Shown here one piece after another: positions 24,544 through 58,921 of a DNA stretch of 64,000 bases. The translations under genes and the position numbers were made by a program. The notes beneath the pieces were generated by a model that had not been told where the DNA came from, did no database searches, and saw only the letters and a list, made by a program, of their open reading frames with translations. The stretch lies in the NCBI GenBank assembly GCA_964655125.1, contig CAZZLT010000021.1:8078-72077 (forward strand), written 5' to 3'. This stretch comes from an uncultured Desulfurococcaceae archaeon. Its GTDB lineage: Archaea; Thermoproteota; Thermoprotei_A; Sulfolobales; NBVN01. Every line of letters starts with the position of its first letter. Position 1 is the stretch's first letter.

Positions 24544-24707
24544 TAGTTGTTAGGAATTATCCTAACTATACTATTAAGAAATAACTTATACTAGGTTAGA
24601 ATTACGTTAGTCCTAATAAAGTTACTTAAGTATTATACTTTGAAAACTACTTTAGTATGTGTAAAGTTTTTAAATCTATACCTACATATATAATATCGGT
24701 GTTATGT

Positions 24708-27365: not shown

Positions 27366-27645
27366 GTTTGTTAGGGAGTTACCTCAAGTACCGACGACTG
27401 TTAAATTATCAACTGAACTTAAGACTGGTTCTTGGAGGTCTTACAGACCTGTAGTAGACCTCGGTAAATGCGTTAAATGCCTTATATGTTGGGTTTACTG
27501 TCCTGAATCAAGTATTAGATGGGATGGTAGTTCTGTAAGTGTAGATTATGACTTCTGTAAGGGTTGTGGGATATGTGCTCATGAATGTCCTGTTAAAGCT
27601 ATAGTTATGGTTCCTGAGGGTGGGGGTTATGAAGGTAGTAGGTGA
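27343..27645 (+). CDS. porD: pyruvate:ferredoxin oxidoreductase delta subunit (2x 4Fe-4S)
   Basis: CVKCLICWVYCP and CKGCGICAHECP. Confidence 0.85.
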   Translation: MLDMSGSEFVRELPQVPTTVKLSTELKTGSWRSYRPVVDLGKCVKCLICWVYCPESSIRWDGSSVSVDYDFCKGCGICAHECPVKAIVMVPEGGGYEGSR

Positions 27646-28858
27646 GGTTAGAGCTTTAAACGGTGATGAAGCAGTAGCTTACGCTGTTAAGCAATGTAAT
27701 GTTGATGTAATCTCAGCATACCCAATAACACCTCAGACAATAATTGTTGAGAGGTTATCTGAGTACGTAGCTAATGGTGAGATACATGCTGAGTATGTAA
27801 ATGTAGAATCTGAACACTCAGCACTTAGTACATGTATTGGTGCTGCAGCGGCTGGTGCTAGGACATTCACAGCAACATCATCTCAAGGCCTAGCACTGAT
27901 GTGGGAGTTACTCTACATAGCCTCAGGTCTTAGACTACCTATAGTTATGGCTGTAGTTAATAGAGCTCTATCAGCACCTATAAACATACACTGCGATCAT
28001 AGTGATTCTATAGGTACTAGAGATTCAGGTTGGATTCAATTCTATGTAGAGAACTCTCAAGAAGCTTACGATACCGTGATACAGGCATTTAAAATAGCTG
28101 AACATCCAGATATTCAACTACCAGTTATGATTAATTTAGATGGGTTCTACCTAAGTCATACCTTAGAGAATGTGAGGGTATTACCAGATGATGTAGTGAG
28201 TGGGTTCGTAGGGTTTAGAAAACCTGTTAAGGTATGGGTACCATACCTAGGTAAGGAGGTTCCTGCAGTACTTGACGGCTACACACCTATCTCATTAGGT
28301 ATTATAGCTCTATCAGACTACTACTACGAGTTTAAGATGATGGTTATTAAGGCTATGGAGAACGCTAGAGAAGTTATTAAGGAAGTGAGTAAGGAGTTCT
28401 CAGAGTTAAGTAGTAGGGTTTATAGTGATGGATTCCTAACACATTACGGTATTGAAGATGCTGAAGCTGTGTTAGTAGTTATGGGTTCTGCAGCTGGTAC
28501 TGTAAGGTACGTAGCTAGAGAGCTTAGGAAGAAGGGGTTGAAGGTAGGTGTTATTAGGTTAAGGACTTTCAGACCATTCCCATATGAGGAATTAACTAAG
28601 TTGTTAGAGAATGTTAAGGCTGTAGGCGTTATGGATAGAGCAGTATCTCCAGGAGCTTACGGTGCACCACTATTTAATGAGGTGAGGACAGCATTATATG
28701 ACTCTAGTAATAAGCCAGTAGTAGTTAATTACGTATACGGTATTGGTGGTAGGGATTTAAGCCCACATACTGTTAAGGAATTATATAGTGACTTACTAGA
28801 GATTGCTAGGGGTAAGAAACCATCAAATACTGTTAGGTATGTTGGGGTGAGGTTATGA
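27620..28858 (+). CDS. porA: pyruvate:ferredoxin oxidoreductase alpha subunit
   Basis: ALNGDEAVAYAVKQCNVDVISAYPITPQT is typical of PorA. Overlaps porD and porB. Confidence 0.9.
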   Translation: MGVMKVVGEVRALNGDEAVAYAVKQCNVDVISAYPITPQTIIVERLSEYVANGEIHAEYVNVESEHSALSTCIGAAAAGARTFTATSSQGLALMWELLYIASGLRLPIVMAVVNRALSAPINIHCDHSDSIGTRDSGWIQFYVENSQEAYDTVIQAFKIAEHPDIQLPVMINLDGFYLSHTLENVRVLPDDVVSGFVGFRKPVKVWVPYLGKEVPAVLDGYTPISLGIIALSDYYYEFKMMVIKAMENAREVIKEVSKEFSELSSRVYSDGFLTHYGIEDAEAVLVVMGSAAGTVRYVARELRKKGLKVGVIRLRTFRPFPYEELTKLLENVKAVGVMDRAVSPGAYGAPLFNEVRTALYDSSNKPVVVNYVYGIGGRDLSPHTVKELYSDLLEIARGKKPSNTVRYVGVRL

Positions 28859-29811
28859 GTACCTCAATAAATTTGAAGGAGTTAGCTAGGGAGAGCCCTA
28901 AACTACTTCCAGGACATAGACACTGTGCTGGGTGTGCAGTACCTATAGTAGTTAAGTTAGTCCTAGCAAGTGTTAAGGAGCCTGCTGTAGTGGTAACTGC
29001 TACAGGTTGTTTACAAGTAGCTACTACTATATTCCCGTATACTTCATGGTATATCCCATGGATACATAATGCGTTTGAGAATGCTGCAGCTACTGCTTCA
29101 GGTATTGAAGCAGCGTTTAAAGCTCTTAAGAAGAGGGGTGCTGTTAATGACGATAACGTTAATATTATAGTGTTCGGTGGTGATGGAGGTACTTACGATA
29201 TAGGATTCCAATCATTAAGTGGTGCTATTGAGAGAGGTCATAACTTCCTCTACATACTCTACGATAATGAAGCATACATGAACACAGGTATTCAGAGGAG
29301 TGGGGGTACACCATTCGGTGCGTGGACAACTACATCACCTGCAGGTAACGTAATTCCTGGGAAACCACAGCATAAGAAACCTATAGCTGATATAGTCGTA
29401 GCTCATAGAGCTCCATACGTAGCTACAGCTACACCAGCTCATTGGTTAGACCTCATGATGAAGGTTAGGAAGGCGTTAAGTATTAGAGGTCCTAAATTCA
29501 TACACGTGTTAACACCATGTCCACGTGGTTGGAGGTTTGACTCAAGTCTATCTATAGAAGTCTGTAGACTAGCTGTTGATACATGCTACTTCCCACTCTG
29601 GGAGTTTGAGAAGGGTGTTTGGAGATTAACTGATAGGAGTTTAGCGATTGTTAAGAACCCTAACCTGAAGAAACCTGTAGAGGAGTTCTTAAAGGTACAG
29701 GAGAGGTTTAGACATGCGTTAACTAAGGATACATACGTAGTTAAAGAACTTCAAGAGTATGTAGATAGTGTATGGAGTGACTTACTGAGGAGGGTAGGTA
29801 TTACTAGTTAA
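28855..29811 (+). CDS. porB: pyruvate:ferredoxin oxidoreductase beta subunit (TPP-binding)
   Basis: GHRHCAGC, GGDGGTYDIGFQSL, and NEAYMNTGIQRS TPP motif. Confidence 0.9.
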   Translation: MSTSINLKELARESPKLLPGHRHCAGCAVPIVVKLVLASVKEPAVVVTATGCLQVATTIFPYTSWYIPWIHNAFENAAATASGIEAAFKALKKRGAVNDDNVNIIVFGGDGGTYDIGFQSLSGAIERGHNFLYILYDNEAYMNTGIQRSGGTPFGAWTTTSPAGNVIPGKPQHKKPIADIVVAHRAPYVATATPAHWLDLMMKVRKALSIRGPKFIHVLTPCPRGWRFDSSLSIEVCRLAVDTCYFPLWEFEKGVWRLTDRSLAIVKNPNLKKPVEEFLKVQERFRHALTKDTYVVKELQEYVDSVWSDLLRRVGITS

Positions 29812-43313: not shown

Positions 43314-44672
43314 CTAACTCCTAACCCTCATAAAATATTTAAGTATTAGTGAGGAAATCACCAACACAACACCTAATACTAAGAACGTATCAGAAATTCT
43401 TAAGACCTCCCTACCTCTAAACTCGTATAGAGGTCTACTTAATGTCTGCGTAGTAGGTACGTAATCACTTGGTGGGGTTTGTGAGTCAACATGACCCCGT
43501 GTGTAGGTCTTAAACACAACCTCAACTAACTTAGGTGTTAAGTACTCGTTAAGTACTTCATACTTAACTCTATGCTCAGTAATACCTAATTTCAAATCAG
43601 TTAGATACGCTTTAGTAGGTTTTAACGATACGTAACTACTACCAGACATACTAACACCTCTGAGGAAGTCCGTAATGTTACATATGATGAAGTAATTCCT
43701 TAAAGTACTTACATTATAATCTAACAATACTAAATAACCACCTACTACTAATGCTGAAGAACTACCTAGGTTGAACACCTTAGTAGTTAATGTTGATGTA
43801 GATAGTACTAGTAAGTAGTTAGTGTTTAAGTCATTCACAACTATAAATAAATCATCACCGTATACTGACGTCAACGTACACCTTACTAAGTTATCGTTTA
43901 CTAAGACCCTATACGTAGATATGTTAAGGTCTTCTAAGTTTACTACAGCTATGTAGAGTCCTAAAACCCTCGAATTAAATATTATGTAGATATTATCATT
44001 AACTACGTACGTATCTACGACCTCATCATCACCTTCCAAACCTACATACCTACCAACTAAGTAGTTATTATCTAACCTACCCACAAATACGTTATAACTC
44101 CATAAGTAGTTAGGGTCTCTAGAGTATATAGAACCAACCACGAATATAGAGTTACCATACCTTAGTATCTTCCTACCGTAACATGCTGTACAGTTAGCTA
44201 TGTAGGAGTTAAGAGAGACTTCAGAAACGTTAAACTCAGTAAGTAGTAGTTTATAGGAGGTATTAGTTAGTACGTACCCAGTAAGCAGTACCTTATTATT
44301 AAGTCCTAATAAGTCGTAAAGTACTGAGGTAGGGTCGAACCTAATACCTACTAATGAGTTGTTATTTATGATTATTACGTAGGTATTGTTTAAAGTCCTA
44401 CTAATACCTACTAATCTATTATCTAACGTTAGACTTAACCTATGAGTACTCATATTTAATAGTGTATAGACTTCATCACTAAGTAAGTTCAGGGTAAGTA
44501 TGCCTGAATCTGTAGGTATTATGATCGTGTAATTATGGATTACTGGTTGGTATAACCTACTTACTCTTAAACTTAACTCAAGCTCTAAGCAATTAATATC
44601 AGCTTTTATAGGTATTAACAGTAGTATCAGAGTTAGTATAATCACTAAATACAGTACCTTATAATTAATCAC
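43314..44672 (-). CDS. secreted/surface-anchored repeat protein, heavily sequon-rich
   Basis: N-terminal signal/TM (VLYLVIILTLILLLIPIKA) and C-terminal TM anchor (FLVLGVVLVISSLILKYF). 10 N-x-S/T sequons counted. Recurrent YVxxxN..LVG blade-like repeats. Confidence 0.6.
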   Translation of the reverse strand: MINYKVLYLVIILTLILLLIPIKADINCLELELSLRVSRLYQPVIHNYTIIIPTDSGILTLNLLSDEVYTLLNMSTHRLSLTLDNRLVGISRTLNNTYVIIINNNSLVGIRFDPTSVLYDLLGLNNKVLLTGYVLTNTSYKLLLTEFNVSEVSLNSYIANCTACYGRKILRYGNSIFVVGSIYSRDPNYLWSYNVFVGRLDNNYLVGRYVGLEGDDEVVDTYVVNDNIYIIFNSRVLGLYIAVVNLEDLNISTYRVLVNDNLVRCTLTSVYGDDLFIVVNDLNTNYLLVLSTSTLTTKVFNLGSSSALVVGGYLVLLDYNVSTLRNYFIICNITDFLRGVSMSGSSYVSLKPTKAYLTDLKLGITEHRVKYEVLNEYLTPKLVEVVFKTYTRGHVDSQTPPSDYVPTTQTLSRPLYEFRGREVLRISDTFLVLGVVLVISSLILKYFMRVRS

Positions 44673-46103: not shown

Positions 46104-46811
46104 CTAAGTTTTAAAATTCCATGAGTCTCGTGAGTACTTACTTAAGTATAACTCCTCTGCTAACTTAACCTCATCCGTAGTTAAATTATCTATGACGACC
46201 CTCCATAAGAATACCTCACTTAATGACTTGATAATGTATGTGTAAATCCCTTCGATAGTTATATTATGTCCTACCTCATCTGATAACTTAGTTACCTCCC
46301 TCTTTAACCTCCTTAAAGAACTTCTTAACTTAATTAAATCACTACTTACTAATAACGTTGAGTGACAAAGTAATGAGTACTTAGTGAGTGAACCAGCCAT
46401 ACCTGAGACCTTCCTACCATTAACTAATACCTCATTAGATGTAGTAGCTATGTTCTTAAGTTTTAAAGAGTTTAAAGTACTTACTAATAAGTCCTTCAGA
46501 ATATCATAACATAACGTTAACCTCCCTCCATAAACCCTAGGTAGTACTAACGTTATGTTTAGATTACCTCCGTCGTGATATACTGTACCACCACCTGAGT
46601 GCCTCCTAACTATAGCTATATCATTAATTAAGCAGTAATCTACGTTAACTTCACTTATAACATCTTCAAACCTACCTAACACTACTGACGGTTTATTAAC
46701 CCAAAACCTTATTACCGGTTTATCAACTTCGACGTTATTTAAAGCTTCCTCAACAGCTAAGTTCATGTAGGGGTCTGAAGGTCTTAATGATTTTATAACC
46801 CTTACATTCAT
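46104..46811 (-). CDS. lplA: lipoate-protein ligase A, catalytic domain only
   Basis: VRRHSGGGTVYHDGGNLNITL and GRKVSGMAG (lipoyl-AMP binding Lys region). Confidence 0.85.
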   Translation of the reverse strand: MNVRVIKSLRPSDPYMNLAVEEALNNVEVDKPVIRFWVNKPSVVLGRFEDVISEVNVDYCLINDIAIVRRHSGGGTVYHDGGNLNITLVLPRVYGGRLTLCYDILKDLLVSTLNSLKLKNIATTSNEVLVNGRKVSGMAGSLTKYSLLCHSTLLVSSDLIKLRSSLRRLKREVTKLSDEVGHNITIEGIYTYIIKSLSEVFLWRVVIDNLTTDEVKLAEELYLSKYSRDSWNFKT

Positions 46812-48154
46812 ATCTTAAGAACCTGAAGTAAAGCATCTCTTAAAACCTCACCTAATGTTGGGTGTGCTAATAACGTGTTAATCACTGTATCTGATGTGGA
46901 TTCTAGAGTTACAGTTATAGATGCCTCATTCACAACTTCAGAAATTCCGTAACCAACACCATGTACACCTAACACACCCCCATACTTAGAATCAACTACT
47001 ACCTTAATCATACCACTAGACATAGATGCTCTAACTAAGGCGTTAGAAGTTAGTGATTGACGTGCTATTAAGACCTCATAACCTAAACTCCTAGCTTCAT
47101 CCTCAGTTAAACCTACTGAGAATACCTCAGGGTATGTAAACGTATATCGTGGGGTTACCCTACAAGTAAACCTCATATTACCGTTAGAGACGTTCACACC
47201 AGCTACTACCCCCTGTACTATAGCTGAGTGAGCATATGTTGAGATACCAGTAACATCACCAGCAGCGTATACATTACCTACACTAGTCCTTAAGCTATCA
47301 TCAACCCATACATAACCATTACGTAACTTAACGTTAAGACCTCCTAACACGTCTAACCTTGGGTTACTTACAGATGCGTTAAACACCTCATCAACACCTA
47401 CAGTTAATACTTCATTACCCCTCATCAGACGTACTTCCTTAACCCCCTGCTTAACTACAATACCACTAACTACAGTATTGGTCATTACCTCAACACCTCT
47501 CTCAGCTAAAGCTAACATTAAGTAATTAACTACCTCCTTATCGAAATCCTTCAACACCTCAGAAGCTCCATCAACTACTATGACCTCAGAACTTAACATA
47601 CTGTAGGTACTAGCTATTGATAAACCGAAGGGGTTACAGCCAATGATTAATACCTTATTAGGTGGTTCTTTAAGGTCTATAAACTCAGTACATGGTCTAA
47701 CACCATCACCTGAACTCCACTTAAGACCTGTAGCTATTATAGCTTTCTTAAACCTTATGTAGGAATCACCTACCTTAGCAGTACTCTCATTCACTAAAAC
47801 TGCTTTATTCTTCAGAACTTCAACACCTAAGTCCTCAAGTGTCTTCCTCATAGATTCTGAAAGTACGTTAACTACATTAGTTCTTACGTAGTTGAAGACC
47901 TTCTCAGCATTCATGGATAACTTATCTACTGAAATACCTGTATCCTCCTGTGATAACTTATTAAGTAAGTCTATAGTTGATAAGTATTTTAGTAGGGTAG
48001 CTAGAGGTACACAACTCTTATTTAAGCAAGTACCCCCGATATGTTTTTCCTCAACTAATAATGTCTTAAGCCCTTTAACAGCTGTTATTAATCCAGCATA
48101 ATAACCTGCTGGACCGCCACCTACTACTAATACATCATATTCTCTACTTGACAC
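46808..48154 (-). CDS. lpdA: dihydrolipoamide dehydrogenase (E3)
   Basis: VVGGGPAGY FAD motif, redox disulfide GGTCLNKSCVP, C-terminal HPTLGE. Confidence 0.9.
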   Translation of the reverse strand: MSSREYDVLVVGGGPAGYYAGLITAVKGLKTLLVEEKHIGGTCLNKSCVPLATLLKYLSTIDLLNKLSQEDTGISVDKLSMNAEKVFNYVRTNVVNVLSESMRKTLEDLGVEVLKNKAVLVNESTAKVGDSYIRFKKAIIATGLKWSSGDGVRPCTEFIDLKEPPNKVLIIGCNPFGLSIASTYSMLSSEVIVVDGASEVLKDFDKEVVNYLMLALAERGVEVMTNTVVSGIVVKQGVKEVRLMRGNEVLTVGVDEVFNASVSNPRLDVLGGLNVKLRNGYVWVDDSLRTSVGNVYAAGDVTGISTYAHSAIVQGVVAGVNVSNGNMRFTCRVTPRYTFTYPEVFSVGLTEDEARSLGYEVLIARQSLTSNALVRASMSSGMIKVVVDSKYGGVLGVHGVGYGISEVVNEASITVTLESTSDTVINTLLAHPTLGEVLRDALLQVLKI

Positions 48155-49349
48155 TTAAGACCGCCCTTAACCTACTCTCATCCTTAATCAAGCTTATGAA
48201 TTTATCGAGGAATTGAGCTGCTGTATGCCCATCTATAACTCTATGGTCGAAGGTTAAGCTGAAGGTACATAAAGTCGCTATGTTAATCCTACCCTCCTCA
48301 ACTATAGGTTTCTGTACGAACCTACCAACACCTAATATAGCTACTTGAGGTGGGTTTATTATCGGCGTGAACGCGTCTATACCATACATACCTAAGTTAG
48401 TTATGGTGAACGTACCACCACTAACATCCTCAATACTTAACTTCCCCTCCCTAGCCTTCCTAGTAAGTTCATTACATGTAATTACTACCTCCTTCAAAGA
48501 CTTCTTATCAGCTTCCTTAACTACAGGTACTACTAATCCATGATCTATTGCGACTGCAAAACCTATGTTAATCTCATCAATGACTTTAATTGTGTTATCC
48601 TCAAGTGTTGAGTTAATTATTGGGAATTCCTTTAATACCTCAGCAACTAACTTAATCAGTATTGGTGTGTATGTCAGTCTAATCCCAACCTCCTTCTCCA
48701 CTAACGGTAGTAACTCATCCCTAATCTTAACGATATTATCAACTACCTCCTCCCTACATATAGTTACTTGAGCCATAGTCCTTAAACTCTCAGTCATCCT
48801 CTCAGCTATAGTCATCCTTAAAGATGTTAAAGGTATGACTTCCTTAACCCTCAACCCCGTCTTAGTCTTCTTCTTAACCTCCTCTACATACTTAATAACA
48901 TCCTCTTCAACTATTAACCCTCCAGGACCGGAACCCTTAATAAGACTTAAGTCAATACCTTCCTTCTCAGCTATCATCCTAGCCCTAGGTGTAGCTCTAA
49001 CTCTAGTAGGTGGTGGGGGTGGGGTAGGGACTTCAGGTACTGCCCTCTCTACAGGTTTAGTAGGTTGTGGTTGGGTGATGACTTCAGGTACTGCCTCACC
49101 TAACTCACCTATGAATGCGATCACACCACCTACAGGGACTGTAGTCCCTACAGGAGCTACTATCTTTAGGAGGTAGCCGGAGGTAGGGGCTTCAACATTA
49201 GCTGTGATCTTCTCTGTCTCAATAACTAATAACGGCTCACCCTTACTAACCCTATCACCTTCACTCTTCAACCACTTCTTAACCACGCCTTTAGTCATTG
49301 TTAAACCGAGTTTAGGCATCTTCACCTCTACAACCATGGAGTTACCCAC
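48144..49349 (-). CDS. dihydrolipoamide acyltransferase (E2)
   Basis: Lipoyl domain with VIETEKITANVEAP, a Pro-rich linker, a peripheral-subunit-binding domain (ATPRARMIAEKEGIDL), and the catalytic DHRVIDG. Confidence 0.9.
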   Translation of the reverse strand: MGNSMVVEVKMPKLGLTMTKGVVKKWLKSEGDRVSKGEPLLVIETEKITANVEAPTSGYLLKIVAPVGTTVPVGGVIAFIGELGEAVPEVITQPQPTKPVERAVPEVPTPPPPPTRVRATPRARMIAEKEGIDLSLIKGSGPGGLIVEEDVIKYVEEVKKKTKTGLRVKEVIPLTSLRMTIAERMTESLRTMAQVTICREEVVDNIVKIRDELLPLVEKEVGIRLTYTPILIKLVAEVLKEFPIINSTLEDNTIKVIDEINIGFAVAIDHGLVVPVVKEADKKSLKEVVITCNELTRKAREGKLSIEDVSGGTFTITNLGMYGIDAFTPIINPPQVAILGVGRFVQKPIVEEGRINIATLCTFSLTFDHRVIDGHTAAQFLDKFISLIKDESRLRAVLSVK

Positions 49350-50340
49350 CCACGACAGAAATACTTCTTAAAACCCTATATACGTTTATTAGTAAGGGCC
49401 CGTTACGTAGGAGTCTCACACCTACTACATCATCTTTAGTTACTTCTAACTCCCTCTCACCATCTAGAGCTACTGTATACCTATTCCGCGGGATCTCTAC
49501 TACCTCACCAATACTTATAGGTTTAAAACTCCTAACACTAACATCTCTGAATTCCCCAGGCATCACTACAGACCTAACCTTAAGACCCCCCTCACCAAAC
49601 TCTACTAAGTAACCTAAATCACTCTCAAACGATGTAGGTCTTAAGAACCCTAAAATCGATGCTAAACCTATATCTGTTGGCTCACCCTTACTGAAGACTG
49701 CGTAGGCTAGGTAATCCACATCAACTATAGCTTTAGCACCTATGTACGGAGTCTTAAGGATCGCTACATCTATAACTGCTGCATCCACTGACTTACCGTT
49801 AAGTAAGACCTCTAATGATTTAGCCTTAATTAAACAATCACTTAATACCTTACCAGTAGCTACTAGACCTGCAGCATAACCAACTAATGTTGCGTCGTAG
49901 AATGCTCCAGTCACGTTATTAGTCCCTGCAGCAACACAGACCATCGGTACATCACCTCCACAACCCTTAAACACAGCTCTTAAAGTACCGTCACCACCTA
50001 CTACAACTACAGCTTTAATACCGTCCTCCCTCATCTTCTTAGCAGCTACTATAGTATCTAAAGCTGTACCAGTACCTCTAGTCTCAACCAACTTTAAACT
50101 AGTTGAAACACGTTTAGATAAGGTAGTACATACGTCCTCACCTAAACCGTAGTTATCATGCATTATGAGTACCTCATCAACACCACCAGCATCTAAACCC
50201 ATAACCACCCTCTTACCTAACTCCACCTTAGTGAAGTTACTTAAGTAACTAGCTGATGAGACTAACCTCCTAATATCCTTACCAGCATCTGGATTTATTA
50301 TTAAACCGACTTTAACACCCATAACTAACACCGAGAACAT
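49342..50340 (-). CDS. NAD-kinase/diacylglycerol-kinase-fold protein (AcoX-like) inserted in the 2-oxoacid dehydrogenase operon
   Basis: VVVVGGDGTLRAV GGDGT motif. 8-nt overlap with the E2 start. Confidence 0.7.
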   Translation of the reverse strand: MFSVLVMGVKVGLIINPDAGKDIRRLVSSASYLSNFTKVELGKRVVMGLDAGGVDEVLIMHDNYGLGEDVCTTLSKRVSTSLKLVETRGTGTALDTIVAAKKMREDGIKAVVVVGGDGTLRAVFKGCGGDVPMVCVAAGTNNVTGAFYDATLVGYAAGLVATGKVLSDCLIKAKSLEVLLNGKSVDAAVIDVAILKTPYIGAKAIVDVDYLAYAVFSKGEPTDIGLASILGFLRPTSFESDLGYLVEFGEGGLKVRSVVMPGEFRDVSVRSFKPISIGEVVEIPRNRYTVALDGERELEVTKDDVVGVRLLRNGPLLINVYRVLRSISVVGG

Positions 50341-50373
50341 AAGTAATTAAGAGAAAAATAAGTTAGGTTTTAA

Positions 50374-51363
50374 TTAAGCCTTCCTAACGACTTCCTTAAC
50401 AGCCTTAACTACCTTCTCAGCATTAGGTAGTATCTCCTTCTCTAAGACCGGGCTAAACGGTATTGGTACTGTAGGTGTTGTAACCCTCTTTATAGGTGCG
50501 TCTAAATACCCGAAACACTCATCAGCTACTATAGCTGCAACCCAAGAAGCAAAACCACATCTATCGTAGTCTTCATCAACAACTACTAACCTACCTGTCT
50601 TCTTAACAGATTTAATAACAGCATCCTTATCAAAAGGTACTAAAGTCCTAGGATCTATAACCTCAACACTAATCCCCTCCTTCCTCAACTCATTAGCAGC
50701 TTTAAGAGCTTCATGAACCATATAAGCTACAGCAACTACAGTTACGTCACTTCCTTCCATCTTAACATCAGCCACCCCGAATGGTATTGTGTATGGCTCC
50801 TTAGGTACAGGCCCCTTCACACCGTAGAGTAGTTTATGTTCGAAGAATATCTTAGGATTATCATCTCTGATAGCAGTGATTAGTAGTCCTTTAGCATCGT
50901 ATGGTGTTGAAGGTACTACTACTTTAAGACCTGGTACATGTGCGAATATTGAGTAAAGTACTTGTGAGTGTTGAGCAGCTGCTGAGAGTCCACCACCTAT
51001 TGTAGTCCTAATCGTTACAGGTATCTTAATCTTACCTCCAAACATATAACGCATCTTAGCTGCTTGATTATATATCTGATCCATACAAACTCCGAAGAAG
51101 TCTACAAACATTAACTCAACTACAGGTCTTAAACCAGCTGCAGCGGCACCTACGGCAGCACCTATGAATCCCGTCTCAGATATTGGCGTATCTATAACTC
51201 TATCAGGACCGAACTTCTGTAGTAACCCTTTAGTAACTCCGAAGATACCTCCGTAAACACCTACATCCTCACCCATAACTACGACGTTAGGGTCTCTCTC
51301 CATCTCCTGCATTAAAGCCTCATTTAAGGCTTCTACAAATGTGATTTCCCTTACCTCACCCAT
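50374..51363 (-). CDS. 2-oxoacid/acetoin dehydrogenase E1 beta subunit
   Basis: Transketolase-like pyrimidine-binding fold, with VVMGEDVGVYGGIFGVTKGL and DTPISETGFIGAAVGAA. Confidence 0.9.
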   Translation of the reverse strand: MGEVREITFVEALNEALMQEMERDPNVVVMGEDVGVYGGIFGVTKGLLQKFGPDRVIDTPISETGFIGAAVGAAAAGLRPVVELMFVDFFGVCMDQIYNQAAKMRYMFGGKIKIPVTIRTTIGGGLSAAAQHSQVLYSIFAHVPGLKVVVPSTPYDAKGLLITAIRDDNPKIFFEHKLLYGVKGPVPKEPYTIPFGVADVKMEGSDVTVVAVAYMVHEALKAANELRKEGISVEVIDPRTLVPFDKDAVIKSVKKTGRLVVVDEDYDRCGFASWVAAIVADECFGYLDAPIKRVTTPTVPIPFSPVLEKEILPNAEKVVKAVKEVVRKA

Positions 51364-51372
51364 AAGACCACC

Positions 51373-52392
51373 TCAGTAGTAAGGATCTGTGAATACATCT
51401 GTATACGCCTCACTAGGTTCTGGGTAGGGACTCCTCTCAGCAAAGTCTACAGCTTCTTCAACCTCCTTAATAGCCTTCTTACGTATATCCTCAAGTAATT
51501 CCTCAGTAGCTATACCGTCCCTAATCAACCTCTGCTTAAACAGTAGTATCGGGTCACGCTTCTTCCACTCCTCAATCTCCTCAACACTCCTATAAACCAT
51601 AGGATCACCTTCGAAATGCCCGTAGAACCTGTATGTCTTACAGTCAAGTAGTGACGGTCCCTCACCCCTCCTAGCACGTTCTACAGCTGCTTTAGCAGCT
51701 TCATAAACAGCTAGTACGTCCTGACCATCAACAGTAACACTCGGGATACCGAAACCTACAGCTCTCTCAGCTACAGACCTAGCTGTTGAGACCCTAGGCT
51801 GTAATTTAGATGGTGTTAAACTCCTTAACGATATAGCGTATTGATTATCCTCAACAACAAATATCACCGGTAGCTTCCATACAGCAGCTAGGTTAAGTGA
51901 TTCAAGCATAGCACCTTGGTTTTGAGCACCATCACCGGCGAAACACACAACTACGTTATCAGTACCTTTATACTTTAAAGCTAATGCAGCACCTATAGCT
52001 AGAGGACCTCCAGCACCTACTATACCGTTAGCACCTAACATACCTACCTCAAAATCAGCAATATGCATAGAACCTCCCTTACCTCTACAAGTACCAGTCT
52101 TCCTACCGAAGAGTTCAGCCATCATACCCTTAACATCAACACCCATAGCGATACAGTGGCCGTGACCCCTATGAGTACTAGTAATGTAATCACCTTTCTT
52201 CAAATTAGATATAACACCTACGGCTACAGCCTCCTCACCAGCGTATAGATGTACGAATCCGGGGATCCTACCCTGAGCAAATAGTTCGTGAACTCTATCC
52301 TCAAACGCTCTAATTAATACCATCTTATAATACATATCTAATAATTTCTCGGGAGGAAGCAAAACACATTCCCAATAAATAATTATTAACAC
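51373..52392 (-). CDS. 2-oxoacid/acetoin dehydrogenase E1 alpha subunit (TPP-binding)
   Basis: GFVHLYAGEEA and the GDGAQNQG...EDNQYAIS TPP motif. The real start is probably the in-frame TTG near 52362 rather than 52392. Confidence 0.9.
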   Translation of the reverse strand: MLIIIYWECVLLPPEKLLDMYYKMVLIRAFEDRVHELFAQGRIPGFVHLYAGEEAVAVGVISNLKKGDYITSTHRGHGHCIAMGVDVKGMMAELFGRKTGTCRGKGGSMHIADFEVGMLGANGIVGAGGPLAIGAALALKYKGTDNVVVCFAGDGAQNQGAMLESLNLAAVWKLPVIFVVEDNQYAISLRSLTPSKLQPRVSTARSVAERAVGFGIPSVTVDGQDVLAVYEAAKAAVERARRGEGPSLLDCKTYRFYGHFEGDPMVYRSVEEIEEWKKRDPILLFKQRLIRDGIATEELLEDIRKKAIKEVEEAVDFAERSPYPEPSEAYTDVFTDPYY

Positions 52393-52442: not shown

Positions 52443-53849
52443 TTATAATGTTAAGTAGGTCTTCAATATCTTATCATAATAATTCTCACGACACTCCACA
52501 CATACTTCGAAGGGTAACCTAGAATATGGTTGTCCACCACCCATTAAGCAACCGTTAGGACATATATATGTGACCATAGCACCTGCCCTTATAATACCTT
52601 TCCTAACAGCTTCTAGAACTCCTCTTAATTCGTAAGGACCTACAGCTCTTAAATACCCGTAAATACTTGGTTTGAATATGTGGTCAGGGTCTGTAGGTTC
52701 TAACTCGGTGATATCTGATGTTTTAAGTATGGTCTGTACTTCCCTTGCTGTTAATACGTAGTCCCCGTACACCTTCCTAGAAATACATTGAGTTATTAGG
52801 ACTACCCTATACGGTATCCGTGTAGCTGGTGGTTGAGTTAAATACTTCCTAAGGTCTGGGTAGAACTGAGTTATGTATTTATACTCTGCGTAACTCATAG
52901 GGACTATACTTAAATCTGTAGATGGTCTTACCTCAGCAAGTGGTGTCCATAGAACTACCTTATCAAAGCCTAACCTCCTGATAGCTGTGATCAACTTACC
53001 TGGATGTACCTCTTCAGATTCAGCTAATGCTGCCAGTGCTTCGTACTCTAAATAAGCTACTAACTTCTCACCCCTCCTAAGCATATCCTGAATTAACTGT
53101 GTAGTACTTACGTGGTTTATAGCACCTACTGGGCAATACGCCGTACATAACCCGCATGAGATGCATGGGGTGTTATCTAACGGTTCTTGAAATGGTGTTG
53201 AGACAGCAATATCTATACCCCTATTTATGATACCTAAAGCATTCACACCTAAGCTACTACACACACTAACACACCTACCGCATACGATACATTTCTCACC
53301 ATCTAAGTTCAGCAACTTACCATTAACATTAACTACTGATGTGCGGCAGAAGTCAAACCTCCTCTCACCCTGCCTAAAGAACTTACCCTCAACTAATTTC
53401 TTAATAAGTGTTAAGAACTCAACATTATTTATAGGACAACCCCTAAGCCAGTAATCAACTTTAACGTAATTACTTATTGGTAATACCATAACTAATTTAC
53501 TTGTAGGTGCGTTAGTAAGAGTCTTAACAACATCTTCTTTTAAATCCTTCATAAGTGCTGGGATACCGCCTAAGAAACTACAAGATCCTAGAGCTACTAA
53601 TACCTTAGACCTAGACCTAAGCTCAACTAACTTCCTAACCTCTTTCTCAGAAGTTACTGAACCTTCAATAAACACTACATCATACTCCTCCTTCTCACCT
53701 ACATAACCAAGTAATGGTTCGTAAGCTATCGTAACGTTATACTTCTCCAGTAGTTCTAGTAATGCATCACCTAAGTTTAAAATCTCATGTCTACAACCAT
53801 CACAACCACTGAAACTGTATATACCTACTACTAACTTATTACTGGTCAT
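52443..53849 (-). CDS. chimeric hydrogenase subunit: [NiFe] small subunit + 2x[4Fe-4S] ferredoxin + degenerate [FeFe]-hydrogenase H-domain-like module
   Basis: SGCDGC, GSCSFLGG and RGCP form the small-subunit proximal cluster. CIVCGRCVSVCS and CISCGLCTAYCP are ferredoxin motifs. Then RRLGFDKV, PMSYAEYKYITQFYPDL, VVLITQCISRK, DYVLTAREV and TYICPNGCLMGGGQP are collinear with [FeFe] H-domain motifs. Confidence 0.8.
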   Translation of the reverse strand: MTSNKLVVGIYSFSGCDGCRHEILNLGDALLELLEKYNVTIAYEPLLGYVGEKEEYDVVFIEGSVTSEKEVRKLVELRSRSKVLVALGSCSFLGGIPALMKDLKEDVVKTLTNAPTSKLVMVLPISNYVKVDYWLRGCPINNVEFLTLIKKLVEGKFFRQGERRFDFCRTSVVNVNGKLLNLDGEKCIVCGRCVSVCSSLGVNALGIINRGIDIAVSTPFQEPLDNTPCISCGLCTAYCPVGAINHVSTTQLIQDMLRRGEKLVAYLEYEALAALAESEEVHPGKLITAIRRLGFDKVVLWTPLAEVRPSTDLSIVPMSYAEYKYITQFYPDLRKYLTQPPATRIPYRVVLITQCISRKVYGDYVLTAREVQTILKTSDITELEPTDPDHIFKPSIYGYLRAVGPYELRGVLEAVRKGIIRAGAMVTYICPNGCLMGGGQPYSRLPFEVCVECRENYYDKILKTYLTL

Positions 53850-53855
53850 AAACTA

Positions 53856-55124
53856 TCATCTCCTAACCTCTAGATGGACAGCGCATACGAGACATGGGTC
53901 ATAAGCTCTAACTAAAGCCCCTACCTTAGCTTCAACCTCTGTCAGACTCACTCCCTCCTCCAATAAATTCTTACTTAATGACTTAGTAGTTACTTCAATA
54001 TGTTTTGAGAACATGACTGTAGGTGTTATTATGTTAGCATATGTTATAACTCCCTCATCATTTAATCTGTAATGATGTATTAGTAAACCTCTAGGAGCTT
54101 CTATAACTCCGACGCCTTCGCCAGCCCTGACCTTAACATCAGTACGTATGTTTAAGTCCTTCTCCTTCAAACCACCTAATATCTCTTTAGAACTAACTAT
54201 ACAGTACAGAAGTTCTACAGCTTTAGCTTTAAGATTACTGAAGGGATTCGTAAGCTCTCCCCTCACATCACTCACAACATCTGAAATACCTGATAACCTC
54301 TCACTAAAAGCTAGTAGTCTAGCTCTAGGACCTACAAAGAATGTCTTACCCCTATATAGGCAGTACTTAGATGTTGAGTACTCACTAATACCTTCACTTA
54401 TATAGTTTAAGTACTCAGACTTTCTAAATCTAACACCATCACTACCTACTACATAATCACTCATCGAGAGGTACCCGGTAGGTGAGTCTAAGACTACGTA
54501 ATGTGGTTCTGGATCCTCCAGCTTCGGTAGGTTTAAATCTACGATATATCTGATTAATTCCTGAGCAACTTTCTCAGCTTTATCTAAAGTCTTCATAGTC
54601 TTCTCCAACACCTCCCTTGTTAAGTTCTTAGTAAATCCGCCTACACTATATGTATTCGGATTAACTATCCTACCAGCTAGGAGTTTCGTTGCTTGGAGAC
54701 ATAAGGTATTTAATATCATAGCCGACTTAACTAACTCAGGCTTCGACAACATTAACTCATTTAGGTTCCTACTGTTGAGATAATCAAGTATTGCTAAGAA
54801 GTATAGATGTACTACTGTATTCTGAGCTATTTGAATCTTATTCATAACTTCCTTAAGCATTATAACATCCTCACTAACCTCTACCTTCAGAGCATCCTCA
54901 ACAGCACTTACTGAGGCTAGGAAGTGAGCGACACTACATGCACCACAGATCCTAGATACTATATAGGGGACTACAGTGAACTTCTTACCAATAATCACGT
55001 GTTCGAAGAATCTAAGATCATCCATAACTACGAATTTAGTCCTTACATCCTTATCACGTAGGTCTACCTGAACTTCTAAATGCCCGAATACCCTATCTAC
55101 CTTACTCTGAATACTTAAACTCAT
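53856..55124 (-). CDS. [NiFe]-hydrogenase large subunit (group 3-like, cytosolic)
   Basis: N-terminal RICGACSVAH and C-terminal DPCLVCAVH followed by a 5-residue tail LEVRR. 422 aa. Confidence 0.9.
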   Translation of the reverse strand: MSLSIQSKVDRVFGHLEVQVDLRDKDVRTKFVVMDDLRFFEHVIIGKKFTVVPYIVSRICGACSVAHFLASVSAVEDALKVEVSEDVIMLKEVMNKIQIAQNTVVHLYFLAILDYLNSRNLNELMLSKPELVKSAMILNTLCLQATKLLAGRIVNPNTYSVGGFTKNLTREVLEKTMKTLDKAEKVAQELIRYIVDLNLPKLEDPEPHYVVLDSPTGYLSMSDYVVGSDGVRFRKSEYLNYISEGISEYSTSKYCLYRGKTFFVGPRARLLAFSERLSGISDVVSDVRGELTNPFSNLKAKAVELLYCIVSSKEILGGLKEKDLNIRTDVKVRAGEGVGVIEAPRGLLIHHYRLNDEGVITYANIITPTVMFSKHIEVTTKSLSKNLLEEGVSLTEVEAKVGALVRAYDPCLVCAVHLEVRR

Positions 55125-55789
55125 GTCTCATCACCTGACTTAAACTTCCTAAACAACTCGCTGATGATACCTACTGTAGGTAGGGAACTCCAAAAGAGTT
55201 CACCAAGTCTTAGAATATCCTTCATATCTATACCGTACTTAACATACAGCTTAACCCCCTCCTCCAACACATCATACCTACTTACAGGACCTCTACAACC
55301 TATACATGGGGAACGTTCATTAGTACATACAGCATTACACCCAGCTATAGTTATAGGTCCTAAACACGGTACACCCTTAGCAAGCAAACACTCACTACCA
55401 TATAAACTACATTCCGAACATATAGGTATTCCCTCAACACCGTAATCCTTCGAAAGTTTTAGTAATTGACAGTAACCTCCCTTCATACTACATGACTGAC
55501 ACTTAATCTTATGAGACGCTAGTATTAACTCAATTATAGCTCTACGGTATTTAAGAACCCTCTCACTATCAGTAAATACTTTAAGTCCTTCAGCTACTGG
55601 GTAAGCACATGCTGGGACTAACCTACCACCACTTACCTCAACTATACAGACTCTACATGTAGCTTCATTAAAGATCCCTTTAAGGTAACATAATGTAGGT
55701 ACTTCATACCCTGCCTTAACTATAGCGTTAAGCAATGTTGACTCAGCATCTACATCTACTTCCTTACCATTCACGAATACCTTAACCAT
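55121..55789 (-). CDS. HoxU / NuoG-N-terminal / HydA-N-terminal-like 2Fe-2S + 4Fe-4S subunit
   Basis: VFVNGKEV...PTLCY...CRVCIVEV (2Fe-2S), HKIKCQSCSMKGGYCQL (His-ligated 4Fe-4S motif), plus further Cys clusters. Confidence 0.85.
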   Translation of the reverse strand: MVKVFVNGKEVDVDAESTLLNAIVKAGYEVPTLCYLKGIFNEATCRVCIVEVSGGRLVPACAYPVAEGLKVFTDSERVLKYRRAIIELILASHKIKCQSCSMKGGYCQLLKLSKDYGVEGIPICSECSLYGSECLLAKGVPCLGPITIAGCNAVCTNERSPCIGCRGPVSRYDVLEEGVKLYVKYGIDMKDILRLGELFWSSLPTVGIISELFRKFKSGDET

Positions 55790-55793: not shown

Positions 55794-57749
55794 TCACCTC
55801 TTAACTACTGCCCCCTGCGGACAGGTTATGAAGCATTGAGAACACCTAATACATCTAGATTTATCTATCATGTACGGCTTACCCCTCTCACCACTAACAG
55901 CATTAGTAGGACATACCTTAGCACATAACCCACAACCAACACATTTAGTAGGATCTACCCAGTACTCAACTAATCTTGCACAAACCCCTGCAGGACACCT
56001 CTTCTCTCTTATATGAGCTATATACTCATCTCTAAAGTACCTTAACGTGGATTTTACTGGGTTAGGTGCTGTACCACCTAAAGCACATAAACTACTACCT
56101 ACTATAGCATCACTTAACTCAGTAAGTATCTCTAAGTCTTCCTCACTACCCCTACCCTCAGTAATATTATTTAATATGTCGTAGAGTATCTTCATACCTA
56201 TACGGCATGGAAAGCACTTACCGCAGGATTCAGCTAGGGTGAAGCTAGTGAAGAACTTAGCTACATCAACCATACAGTTCTTATCATCTATTACTACAAC
56301 TCCTCCTGAACCCATGATAGCCCCAGCACTCTGTAAAGTCTCGTAATCAACTGGAGTATCCAGCATATCTGAGGGGACACAACCACCGCTAGGGCCGCCG
56401 ACCTGTACCGCCTTAACATTCCTCCCTTCTGGGGGACCGCCTGCTAGGTCATAAACTAACTTCTTAAGTGTTATACCTATAGGTACTTCATAAGCACCAG
56501 TACGTCTTACAGAACCTGTAATACAGAACATCTTAGTACCTTTACTCTTCTCAGTCCCATACTTAACGAACTCATCAACACCTACTTGAAATATTGTTGC
56601 TACATGTGCTACTGTCTCAACATTGTTTATAACTGTAGGTTTACCCCATAAACCTTTAGTTGCTGGGTATGGAGGCCTCTGCCTAGGTCTAGTACGTCCT
56701 TCAATAGCTGCTATTAATGCTGTTTCCTCACCACAGACAAACGCACCAGCACTTAATATAACCTCTATATCGAAGTTAAAACCGCTACCTAAGATATTCC
56801 TACCTAATAACCCGTACTTCCTAGCCTCCTCAACAGCTTTTGATAATCTCTCAGCCATTAAAGGCTTCTCAGCCCTAACGAAGATATAGCCTTTAGAAGC
56901 ACCTATAGCGTAAGCACCTATTATCATACCCTCAACAATTCTGTAGGGGTCTGCCTCAGCTAATAACCTATTCATGAACGCTCCAGGATCTCCTTCATCA
57001 GCATTAACTATGAAGTACTTAACATCACTTACTTGTGATTGAGCTATATCCCATTTAATCCATGTAGAGAACCCAGCACCTCCACGTCCTCTAAGACCTG
57101 ACCTCTTAACAATCTCGATAACAGTCTTAGGGGTAGTGTTTAATGCTCTCTCAAGTCCTTTAAAACCACCGAAAGCTATGTACTCCTCAATAGATTCCGG
57201 ATTAACTACACCGCAATTCCTAGAAACAAACCTTACTTGATTAGACCAAGGAGTTAGTTCCTCAAGTAATGGTGCCTTAGGAGTAGGTAGTGTTAATCCT
57301 CTAGACCTAATTGCAAATGCTCTAGATAGGTCGTTATTTAAGTACTCTCTAATTATTTTAGGTATGTCTTCAGGCTTAACATTAGCGTATATTACTGATG
57401 GGAAGTCCTTCCTAGAAATCTCTAACCACGGATCTATGTAGCAGAGACCTATACAACCTGTAATTCCGATATCTATGTTTAAACCGCTTGACTTAACCTC
57501 CTTAACAACTACATCATATACTTCCCTAGCTCCAGCAGCTAAAGTACAACTAGCTATCGGTACTTTAATCTTTAACCCGTACCTCCCATACTTAATCTCA
57601 TCAATCCTCCTCTCCCTCTTAACCCTACACTCAGGACTCTCATGACATAGAGGACCTTCAGTCCTACACCTAACATAATGTTTACATGGGTATTCCGGTG
57701 TATGCCAACACCTACTACAACACTTATCCATTAAAGTCCACGTACTCAT
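55794..57749 (-). CDS. NuoF/HoxF/HydB-like NAD(P)H-binding flavoprotein subunit with N-terminal Cys-rich extension and C-terminal 2x[4Fe-4S]
   Basis: GRGGAGFSTWIKW (FMN), NADEGDPGAF, ESCGKCFPCRIG (N3 cluster), and C-terminal CVGCGLCAKVCP and CIRCSQCFITCP. Confidence 0.9.
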   Translation of the reverse strand: MSTWTLMDKCCSRCWHTPEYPCKHYVRCRTEGPLCHESPECRVKRERRIDEIKYGRYGLKIKVPIASCTLAAGAREVYDVVVKEVKSSGLNIDIGITGCIGLCYIDPWLEISRKDFPSVIYANVKPEDIPKIIREYLNNDLSRAFAIRSRGLTLPTPKAPLLEELTPWSNQVRFVSRNCGVVNPESIEEYIAFGGFKGLERALNTTPKTVIEIVKRSGLRGRGGAGFSTWIKWDIAQSQVSDVKYFIVNADEGDPGAFMNRLLAEADPYRIVEGMIIGAYAIGASKGYIFVRAEKPLMAERLSKAVEEARKYGLLGRNILGSGFNFDIEVILSAGAFVCGEETALIAAIEGRTRPRQRPPYPATKGLWGKPTVINNVETVAHVATIFQVGVDEFVKYGTEKSKGTKMFCITGSVRRTGAYEVPIGITLKKLVYDLAGGPPEGRNVKAVQVGGPSGGCVPSDMLDTPVDYETLQSAGAIMGSGGVVVIDDKNCMVDVAKFFTSFTLAESCGKCFPCRIGMKILYDILNNITEGRGSEEDLEILTELSDAIVGSSLCALGGTAPNPVKSTLRYFRDEYIAHIREKRCPAGVCARLVEYWVDPTKCVGCGLCAKVCPTNAVSGERGKPYMIDKSRCIRCSQCFITCPQGAVVKR

Positions 57750-57751: not shown

Positions 57752-58267
57752 TTAAACACCTGATTTCCTCTTACTGGAGGTGAGACCCCTATACTTTAAA
57801 GCTAATTTCCTAGCTTCTTGTACATTGACGTACCCATGCAGGTACCTTTCACTACCATCCCTACTAACAACCATGATCACTGGTGCTAATGAACAACAAC
57901 CAAAGCATCTAGCCCTCTCAACACTAACTAAACCATCAGGAGATGTAGTACCTCCCTTAATACCTAAAGCATCTCTTAAAACCTTATAATTATCTTGATT
58001 ACCTTTTAAATGACATGCCGTACCCATACAGACTAAAAATATGTAGTACCCCGGGGGTTCGAGCTTGTATTGATGGTAGAAAGTAGCTACGTTAATTATA
58101 TCTGATAGGGGTATCCTCATAATGTTTGAGAGTTTCTCAAGAGCTTCCCGAGGTAGGTACCCATAAACTGACTGTATCTCCTGAAGTATCCTCATAAGAT
58201 ATTGCCTACTACTATACCTACCAAGTATATCTGATAAAACATTATCTACGTTACTTACCGTGGGCAT
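57752..58267 (-). CDS. NuoE/HoxE/HydC-like thioredoxin-fold 2Fe-2S subunit
   Basis: VCMGTACHLKG and RCFGCCSLAP supply the four 2Fe-2S cysteines. Confidence 0.9.
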   Translation of the reverse strand: MPTVSNVDNVLSDILGRYSSRQYLMRILQEIQSVYGYLPREALEKLSNIMRIPLSDIINVATFYHQYKLEPPGYYIFLVCMGTACHLKGNQDNYKVLRDALGIKGGTTSPDGLVSVERARCFGCCSLAPVIMVVSRDGSERYLHGYVNVQEARKLALKYRGLTSSKRKSGV

Positions 58268-58420: not shown

Positions 58421-58921
58421 TCATTCCATATTCTCTAAAATTGCGTTAACAGCTATTCTAGCAGCTGTTTTAACAACCTCACTACACTTATCAATAGCTC
58501 CACTACTGATGAACTCGTTAAGTTCATTAGGATCTCTTAAGTTATAGTACCTACCGAATAACCTTATATGTATATCCCTACATCTAACACTTCCGAAGGA
58601 CTCTTTAAACTCATCAAATACTTTATAACTAACCTCCATAGCCTTCTTATAACCTTTAGATTCTGTTGTAGGTTCTAACCTATCACGTCCGAATACTAAG
58701 CTAACAGCCATTAAAGCACCTAGTAAAGCACCGCAGACCTCACCACCCCTAGCTACACCCCCGGCTAACGCTGAAGCAGCTTTAAATACATTACCATCAC
58801 TTAAGTTAAGGACATCCTGAACAGCTTTTAAAGTCATTTGAGAACATCCATGGTATTTAAGGTCTAACTCCTTAGCTAGAGACTCAACCCTACTTATCAA
58901 TAACTCCTTATCTAGACGCAT
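58421..58921 (-). CDS. C_GCAxxG_C_C family putative redox-active protein
   Basis: GGEVCGALLGALMAV core motif plus additional conserved Cys residues (CSQM, RCRD, KCSE). Confidence 0.75.
   Translation of the reverse strand: MRLDKELLISRVESLAKELDLKYHGCSQMTLKAVQDVLNLSDGNVFKAASALAGGVARGGEVCGALLGALMAVSLVFGRDRLEPTTESKGYKKAMEVSYKVFDEFKESFGSVRCRDIHIRLFGRYYNLRDPNELNEFISSGAIDKCSEVVKTAARIAVNAILENME

Follow-up and report, generated by a model that had tools for sequence, protein, structure and literature searches.

Is a single open reading frame (ORF) that joins part of a [NiFe] hydrogenase to part of an [FeFe] hydrogenase a new kind of enzyme, a decaying one, or a member of a family already described, and what might its [FeFe]-like half still do? 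The question is raised by a stretch of 64,000 nucleotides (hereafter the window) of contig CAZZLT010000021.1 (positions 8,078 to 72,077; assembly GCA_964655125.1), belonging to an uncultured Thermoproteota metagenome-assembled genome (MAG) from a hot environment, named "Sulfolobales archaeon" at NCBI. On the minus strand of the window, positions 52443..53849 encode a protein of 468 residues of the HyhS-HydA type, in which the N-terminal domain of a [NiFe] small subunit is followed by a ferredoxin module and by a shortened homologue of the [FeFe] hydrogenase H-domain (the domain that, in canonical enzymes, holds the catalytic H-cluster, i.e., a [4Fe-4S] cubane and a [2Fe] subsite).

The fusion protein and its family

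The fusion gene is an intact ORF from ATG to stop codon, and each of its three modules is supported by Pfam and NCBIfam domains, so that the three-module architecture proposed by an initial annotation of this DNA stands, together with the cysteines and the peptide strings quoted in it, all of which are present in the protein. Residues 1-160 (53370..53849, minus strand) represent the N-terminal domain of a group 3 [NiFe] small subunit. It has all four cysteines of the proximal cluster (C16, C19, C90, and C138), of which C16, C90, and C138 are unchanged across 56 homologues; moreover, residues 16-151 match Oxidored_q6, the Pfam family of [NiFe] small subunits and NuoB, with an E value of 6.6e-23, and the domain aligns with the delta subunit of the Pyrococcus furiosus hydrogenase SHI (2.2e-20) and with the [NiFe] small subunit of Acetomicrobium mobile (7t2r_E; 4.9e-11). 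The second module, residues 181-245 (53115..53309, minus strand), is a 2x[4Fe-4S] ferredoxin module comparable to FS4A/FS4B of HydA. It harbors two CxxCxxCxxxC motifs (C187/190/193/197 and C229/232/235/239), whose eight cysteines are invariant in the 56 homologues, and Pfam families of the 4Fe-4S dicluster type (Fer4_7, Fer4_21) are found on residues 186-244. A longer region, residues 174-299, aligns with residues 134-265 of Thermoanaerobacter kivui HydA1 (72 bits).

The third module, residues 246-445 (52515..53114, minus strand), is homologous to the [FeFe] H-domain, as had been proposed. The Pfam family Fe_hyd_lg_C (PF02906), whose curated cut-off is 22.1 bits, scores 26.2 bits on the whole fusion and 30.2 bits (E value 4.4e-7) on residues 246-468 alone; the profile searches suggested by the initial annotation for the N-terminal domain and for the H-like region thus gave significant matches in each case. 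In the fusion family, 19 out of 23 C-terminal domains match PF02906 (the best one at 4e-15) and no other Pfam family. Among the NCBIfam profiles, the fusion scores 110 bits with that of [FeFe] group A and 85 bits with that of the sulfhydrogenase delta subunit. An AlphaFold2 model built from the 56 homologues has a mean predicted local distance difference test (pLDDT) score of 85.5, with values of 90-97 throughout the H-like domain, and the top PDB matches retrieved with Foldseek for this model are [FeFe] hydrogenases, namely T. kivui HydA1 (8a6t_A, E value 1.7e-18), Thermotoga maritima HydA (7p5h_A), and Clostridium pasteurianum CpI. A chance resemblance to the H-domain is ruled out by the PF02906 score above the cut-off together with the Foldseek matches. 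An artefact of assembly or a frameshift at the junctions between domains, which the initial annotation had asked to exclude, was also discarded, since the identical 468-residue protein recurs on at least 23 independently assembled contigs (Logan, JGI, ENA, and NCBI).

The C-terminal tail that follows the H-like domain is the least conserved part of the fusion (mean identity 0.18). After the GGGQP motif it carries a CxxC pair, FEVC448VEC451R (fusion residues 448-451, 52497-52508, minus strand), which is confined to the close relatives of the window protein (P0001-P0011).

The architecture is not new. According to Greening et al. 2024 (Cell 187:3357, PMC11216029), to which the report of archaeal hybrids mentioned in the initial annotation corresponds, group F [FeFe]/3f [NiFe] hybrids are made up of a C-terminal HydA domain and an N-terminal HyhS domain, and their definition includes contiguous hyhL, hydB, and hydC genes and hydD, which encodes a NuoG-like conduit subunit with four clusters; the set described there comes from 21 genomes and the family is archaeal, its hosts including Thermoproteia. 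The window locus shows both features: a small-subunit domain fused to an H-domain in one ORF (on the basis of Oxidored_q6, PF02906, and Foldseek) and contiguous hyhL, hydB, hydC, and hydD genes. It thus matches the published definition and belongs to this family. The same gene order is found in a Brockarchaeota locus (L085), in a second Sulfolobales MAG (L086), and in a Bathyarchaeia locus (L087), and in a rough neighbour-joining tree, built from sequences other than the references of Greening et al., the window protein falls in one clade with the fusions of Brockarchaeota, Bathyarchaeia, and Hadarchaeota. Hence, the observation of the initial annotation is real and statistically solid, and its central claim, the novelty of the architecture, falls away, the architecture having been published in 2024. 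Public annotations lag behind that work, as the generic names of the deposited protein indicate: "4Fe-4S binding protein [Sulfolobales archaeon]" at NCBI and "F420-reducing hydrogenase gamma subunit" at JGI.

The family sample was widened in two ways. A scan of a genome collection with the family alignment, which relied on generic back-translated patterns and was swamped by bacterial [FeFe] hydrogenases, returned only four archaeal fusions and missed the window's own species; a second, word-indexed homology search, seeded with cysteine-keeping members, added six fusions, none of them from Thermoplasmata. A set of HydA-like proteins of about 430-450 residues with a full N-terminal F-domain (P0136, P0137, P0162, P0172, P0178, P0187, and P0228) was also observed. 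These proteins share the shortened H-domain of the archaeal fusions, harbor a single cysteine in the L1 motif (e.g., SPRCPAF) and a Glu at the Lys358 position, and are the nearest neighbours of the fusions in the rough neighbour-joining tree.

The site of the H-like domain

What, then, does the H-like domain still hold? The CpI numbering was rebuilt from PDB alignments, and CpI, Acetobacterium woodii HydA1, other group A enzymes, and 73 fusions were then aligned. The cysteines at CpI positions 355, 499, and 503 (C355, C430, and C434 of the window protein) are invariant in all 73 fusions. The three motifs of canonical [FeFe] hydrogenases (groups A-D) are preserved to a different extent. L3 (CxxxCxxGGGQP) is retained and reads IC430PNGC434LMGGGQP in the window protein. 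L2 (MPCxxKxxE) is replaced by TQCISRKVY, in which Cys355 is kept, Lys358 is changed into Arg, as the initial annotation had noticed, and Glu361 into Tyr. L1 (TSC(C/S)PxW, with the relay Cys) is replaced by VPMSYAE; its remnant M318-S319-Y-A-E322 (52884..52898, minus strand) was located from the alignments and from a residue table in CpI numbering.

In alignments of 44 to 90 sequences, Met318 corresponds to CpI C299 (the proton relay), Ser319 to CpI C300 (a cubane ligand), and Glu322 to the position of CpI W303. The initial annotation had the TSCCP pair replaced by Glu-Tyr, which stems from a register error: it anchored L1 on the left, at a "PM" pair, a register that is ruled out by the multiple alignments, by the invariant Ser319, and by the intermediates with PCS or PCC. 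Anchoring on the right instead, at YPxL, is backed by the intermediates IPCSEAA (Bathyarchaeia) and IPCCYSA (Brockarchaeota).

Ser319 is invariant in 56 out of 56 close homologues; in the whole set of fusions, Ser occupies this position in 66 out of 73, and Cys in the remaining 7. A Ser at this position has a precedent from a cryo-EM study of A. woodii HydABC: in HydA1, whose L1 reads TSCSPGW, Ser301 replaces a Cys ligand of the H-cluster cubane, with the Fourier-transform infrared signature and the activity unaffected (PMC10021017). The TSCSPGW motif is also common among genuine group A enzymes. This precedent makes a cubane bound by one Ser and three Cys plausible in the window protein, and the missing fourth ligand is probably Ser319. 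The statement that three out of four H-cluster ligands are kept (C355, C430, and C434) is therefore correct as far as the cysteines are concerned, but it understates the case, the fourth position being an invariant Ser.

A number of other canonical features are missing from the window protein: the relay Cys, the helix carrying E279/E282/R286, the residue corresponding to CpI S319, the P324/Q325 loop, the F417 lobe, and Lys358. In all the fusions, the F417 lobe and the residues of the CpI proton pathway (E279/S319/E282/R286) have been either deleted or substituted. In the second sphere, the window protein has Glu in place of A230 and S232 (E268 and E270, respectively, invariant or nearly so), Thr in place of M353, and Tyr in place of M497. 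The H-like domain is about 95 residues shorter than canonical ones over the compared region, close to the figure of roughly 100 given before; the deletions are present in every fusion, including the cysteine-keeping ones of Brockarchaeota and Bathyarchaeia, so that they represent a family trait rather than a locus-specific decay.

Nor does the term "degenerate" fit this domain. Its mean pairwise identity (0.38) is close to that of the small-subunit domain (0.45), and S319, C355, C430, C434, and E270 are invariant in the 56 homologues. Judging from this conservation, the site is maintained and not decaying. These data also bear on the idea that the H-like domain might be a metal-free structural relic, acting as a scaffold for the assembly of HydD and the small-subunit domain. 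The loss of about 95 residues and of most of the pocket residues would agree with it; on the other hand, three Cys and one Ser are found at the exact cubane positions in 56 close homologues, the three Cys occur in all 73 fusions, and two family members that have lost GGGQP still keep all four ligand positions, which would be unexpected in a protein devoid of a cluster. We thus regard a metal-free relic as very improbable.

The distribution of the L1 residues splits the family. Seven of the 73 fusions, of the Brockarchaeota and Bathyarchaeia type, have Cys at position 299, and two, of the Hadarchaeota type, have Trp-Cys at positions 299-300; all nine have Ala at the position of W303. The other 64, the window protein included, have no Cys in L1, Ser at position 300, and Glu (E322) at that of W303, a single helical turn beyond the lost relay Cys. 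In the rough neighbour-joining tree, the cysteine-bearing lineages branch first and the 64 Cys-less sequences form one clade, in which the window protein is deeply nested. The switch from Cys to Glu maps to one branch of this tree, and it was thus probably a single event and not a repeated co-variation. After the switch, Glu was kept in 64 out of 64 sequences and position 299 spread over 13 residue types; at position 358, the same 64 sequences have Arg (43), Trp (17), or Lys (4). As far as the accessible part of the published account of the hybrid family goes, this large branch is not discussed in it.

According to these data, we assign a probability of about one half to the reading in which the H-like domain of the Cys-less clade would keep the cubane only, without a functional [2Fe] subsite, and would use it as a cluster for the relay or entry of electrons. 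It is favored because nothing remains of the canonical proton pathway, the relay Cys and Lys358 are both absent, all the canonical second-sphere residues have been lost, and the erosion is stepwise across the clade; in canonical [FeFe] enzymes, Lys358 binds the distal cyanide. The cubane itself would be retained because its four positions are invariant in the 56 homologues and because of the A. woodii Ser ligand. The doubt that the initial annotation expressed about a canonical H-cluster is reasonable in this respect, the relay Cys and the E279/E282/R286/S319 pathway being absent, and a catalytic H-cluster keeps a minor but appreciable share of the probability.

Several points weigh against a cubane-only domain. 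One artificially matured group F fusion is reported to make H2, and the domain is termed a true H-cluster domain by Greening et al. (PMC11216029); it follows that a scaffold of this family, with the same deletions, can hold the [2Fe] subsite. The would-be [2Fe] pocket is lined by E268, E270, and E322, all of them invariant or almost invariant, and Glu322, whose fixation coincides precisely with the clade devoid of the Cys, could act as a replacement proton relay. The pattern of conservation indicates that the H-like domain is under purifying selection. As regards maturation, which is neutral in this respect, no hyp, hycI, or hydE/F/G gene was found in the 64-kb window by Pfam searches of ORFs of at least 110 residues, which small genes such as hypC may escape.

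Some of these points lead to a different view, namely a true dual-site hybrid, in which a complete H-cluster (a Ser319-ligated cubane plus [2Fe]) would be catalytic, with Glu322 in place of Cys299 as the relay, and the [NiFe] and [FeFe] sites would feed one bifurcating core. The evolution of H2 by published group F fusions after maturation with [2Fe]adt (PMC11216029) speaks for it, as does the compatibility of a Ser ligand with a normal H-cluster (PMC10021017); C434, the equivalent of the bridging Cys, and GGGQP are invariant in the close homologues, the partition of Glu at position 303 is strict (64/64 Cys-less fusions versus 0/9 cysteine-keeping ones), and a carboxylate-for-Cys variant of CpI, C299D, has been studied (PDB 6glz). 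However, the partition reflects a switch on a single branch, Lys358 is Arg in the window protein and Trp in 17 relatives, and no canonical second-sphere residue is retained (A230/S232, M353, and M497 are changed, the regions of P324/Q325 and F417 are deleted); furthermore, the published enzymes that were assayed (Th1 and Th2) may be of the cysteine-keeping type. A catalytic second site in this clade therefore appears possible but doubtful, and less probable than a cubane-only domain.

A broader proposal can be put forward only tentatively: the [FeFe]-type site of the clade may have been rebuilt, either as a natural H-cluster with a carboxylate relay or around a different cofactor, in a hybrid that would have arisen by the exchange of halves between hydA and the small-subunit gene. 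If so, the published family would embed two chemically distinct kinds of [FeFe] half. Most of the public family members, labelled merely "4Fe-4S binding protein" or "F420 hydrogenase gamma subunit", lack the relay Cys, which raises the question of whether both catalytic sites are active in every hybrid lineage or in the basal ones only; Ser319 and Glu322 bear on how a protein scaffold tunes or silences an H-cluster. Since the hybrid architecture was reported in 2024, the locus does not represent a new kind of system; what it adds is the Cys-less clade and the reciprocal domain exchange.

Partner subunits, electron path, and genomic context

Which enzyme would such a fusion serve? It is encoded by the last of five minus-strand genes in the order hydC-hydB-hydD-hyhL-fusion, spaced by -4 to +6 nt. 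The gene hyhL (53856..55124) codes for a group 3 [NiFe] large subunit of 422 residues (NiFeSe_Hases, E value 6.4e-35), which keeps both [NiFe]-binding CxxC motifs (RIC60GAC63 and DPC411LVC414AVH) and whose closest structure is the alpha subunit of P. furiosus SHI (1.7e-51). The gene hydD (55121..55789) codes for a conduit subunit of 222 residues, with 15 Cys and His93, identified by homology to 7q4v_A and SHI delta, in agreement with NCBIfam. Its residues 1-123 match the N-terminus of HydA/NuoG, with [2Fe-2S] and His-ligated [4Fe-4S] clusters (7q4v_A, 7e-25), and its residues 121-199 match residues 160-250 of SHI delta (1.4e-14), which in a [NiFe] small subunit make up the domain of the medial and distal clusters; the sequence shows CxxC...PCLGPxTxAGCNAxC...CIGCRGP.

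The gene hydB (55794..57749) encodes a BfuB-type NADH/flavin mononucleotide (FMN) diaphorase of 651 residues with a C-terminal 2x[4Fe-4S] module (nuoF_fam, 465 bits), which aligns over nearly its full length (residues 67-650) with the HydB of the structurally solved, electron-bifurcating [NiFe] enzyme of A. mobile (7t2r_B, 658 bits) and scores 630-650 bits with the HydB subunits that A. woodii, T. kivui, and T. maritima have in their bifurcating [FeFe] hydrogenases. Residues 1-53 of this protein (57591-57749, minus strand) match the "CCxxC motif-containing NuoF prefix domain" (NCBIfam NF040902, 74.8 bits), a prefix that is missing in the solved HydB structures, whose alignments start at about residues 59-91. 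The gene hydC (57752..58267) encodes a thioredoxin-like [2Fe-2S] subunit of the NuoE/HoxE type, of 171 residues (2Fe-2S_thioredx, E value 3.8e-37; HoxE and NuoE profiles).

No gene for a sulfhydrogenase beta or gamma subunit is present in the operon, and the small subunit is divided between the fusion and HydD. The fusion carries the parts that are complementary to those of HydD, i.e., the N-terminal domain of the small subunit followed by the ferredoxin module and the H-domain of HydA. Thus, HydD and the fusion appear to stem from a reciprocal exchange of halves between hydA and the small-subunit gene, an arrangement that the accessible part of the text of Greening et al. 2024 does not spell out; the complementary halves suggest how the two hydrogenase types became joined.

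On the basis of its gene content, the locus most likely encodes a five-subunit cytoplasmic hydrogenase of the hybrid family, of the Bfu type (i.e., with a NuoE/NuoF core), coupled to NADH and ferredoxin. HydB (with its FMN/NAD(H) site and C-terminal ferredoxin module) and HydC correspond to the BfuB and BfuC subunits that characterize this type; in place of the single BfuA conduit subunit of Bfu type 3, the modules are divided between HydD and the fusion. In such an enzyme, HyhL, with its intact [NiFe] site, would form or split H2, and electrons would pass from this site to the proximal [4Fe-4S] cluster in the N-terminal domain of the fusion, then to two clusters in the C-terminal half of HydD (representing the medial/distal half that the small subunit lacks), then to the His-[4Fe-4S] and [2Fe-2S] clusters of the N-terminal half of HydD, and finally to HydBC, with its FMN/NAD(H) site and its clusters that face ferredoxin. 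In this way, the enzyme would couple NADH and reduced ferredoxin to H2, either by confurcation or by bifurcation. Within the fusion, the two ferredoxin clusters and the H-like domain are expected to dock on the N-terminal half of HydD, as the two halves of a split HydA, and this docked part would form a side arm ending in the [4Fe-4S] cubane on Cys355, Cys430, Cys434, and Ser319.

A side arm of this kind might also be a sensor, and one could imagine that an H-cluster or a cubane reports H2 or the redox state and gates the electron flow in the bifurcating core. The putative sensory [FeFe] hydrogenases of groups C/D (HydS-type) also lack the proton-relay Cys. The loss of this residue with retention of the cluster ligands would parallel what is described for those enzymes, and the H-like domain lies off the shortest path deduced from the [NiFe] site to FMN. 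Nevertheless, no PAS, kinase, or other signalling domain was detected in the fusion or in the operon, and GAF-domain genes adjoin the cysteine-keeping loci and not that of the window. By analogy a regulatory role is conceivable, and we consider it unlikely, though less so than a metal-free relic; the cubane as a relay or entry cluster remains our preferred reading.

The genes around the operon suggest where the electrons might come from. The hydrogenase operon is followed downstream, after 50 nt and on the same strand, by a 2-oxoacid dehydrogenase operon (46104-52392, minus strand) with genes for E1 alpha and E1 beta, a DAGK/NAD-kinase-like protein, E2 and E3, and a lipoate-protein ligase; subunit genes of a pyruvate:ferredoxin oxidoreductase are found at 26922-29811 (plus strand). 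The former enzyme would supply NADH and the latter reduced ferredoxin, which fits an evolution of H2 by confurcation.

Some further features of the neighbourhood were recorded. About 150 nt upstream of hydC, on the same strand, lies a gene for a putative redox protein of the C_GCAxxG_C_C family (166 residues, 58421-58921, minus strand). Other redox genes of the window encode a molybdopterin oxidoreductase with its 4Fe-4S partner (13203-15759, plus strand) and a rubrerythrin (24657-25262, plus strand). A rubrerythrin gene also directly follows the Brockarchaeota hybrid cluster (L085 9476-9943), beside which lipoate ligase genes are found as well (L085 998-2106). Genes for a HycI maturation protease and for a GAF-domain protein adjoin the cysteine-keeping loci (L085 2087-3873; L087 2217-3302 and 9549-10058), and neither gene occurs within 10 kb of the window locus or of that of the other Sulfolobales MAG (L086). 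Pfam gave no match at E ≤ 1e-5 for two long ORFs: one of 433 residues (3224-4525, minus strand), which sits inside a purine-biosynthesis operon, and one of 452 residues (43314-44672, minus strand), which recurs unannotated in all the related contigs. A search of both strands of the whole window with Rfam retrieved no family at its gathering score, and hence no rRNA.

Comparison with other hydrogenases

How does this system compare with known ones? Among enzymes with a [NiFe] site, it shares with the A. mobile HydABCSL complex (PDB 7t2r; Bfu type 3) the same BfuB/BfuC core and a [NiFe] large subunit, and in both the small-subunit module consists of the proximal-cluster domain only (7t2r_E, of 179 residues, aligns with residues 8-157 of the fusion). 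However, A. mobile possesses a single HydA of 692 residues without an H-domain, whereas in the window the parts of HydA are split and an H-domain homologue is present. The group 3b sulfhydrogenase of P. furiosus, SHI (PDB 9e15/9nez), provides the closest solved large subunit, and its delta subunit matches both the N-terminal domain of the fusion and the C-terminal half of HydD. Of the group 3b features, both large-subunit CxxC motifs (C60/C63 and C411/C414) are found in the window; the undivided small subunit with beta/gamma NADPH subunits is not. SHI, in turn, has an undivided delta subunit and NADPH-binding beta/gamma subunits, and it lacks both the NuoE/NuoF core and an H-domain.

Residues 174-468 of the fusion find their best matches, in sequence as well as in fold, among the electron-bifurcating [FeFe] HydABC enzymes (T. 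kivui 8a6t, A. woodii 7q4v, and T. maritima 7p5h), which have the same HydB and HydC partners; A. woodii HydA1 (TSCSPGW) also has in common with the window protein a Ser at the cubane-ligand position. In contrast with the window protein, these enzymes have retained the relay Cys as well as Lys358, the E279/E282/R286 pathway, and a full-length H-domain, and they have no [NiFe] partner.

An H-domain with a cubane only would have a functional analogue in Nar1/IOP1. The Nar1/IOP1 proteins are H-domain proteins with a [4Fe-4S] site, no [2Fe] subcluster, and no relay Cys; in eukaryotes they serve as cytosolic Fe-S assembly factors, and they differ from the fusion in having four Cys as ligands and in lacking hydrogenase partners.

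Finally, the hybrids of Greening et al. (PMC11216029) exhibit the same fusion and the same contiguous subunit genes. The differences concern the site itself, since the H-cluster cysteine ligands are stated to be conserved in the published hybrids, whereas the window protein has Ser at the first ligand position and Met at the relay position, and the diaphorase subunit, the published HydB being described with a glutamate-synthase-like domain and that of the window being a standard BfuB. With respect to the cysteine-keeping hybrid loci, that of the window also differs in having no adjacent HycI or GAF gene.

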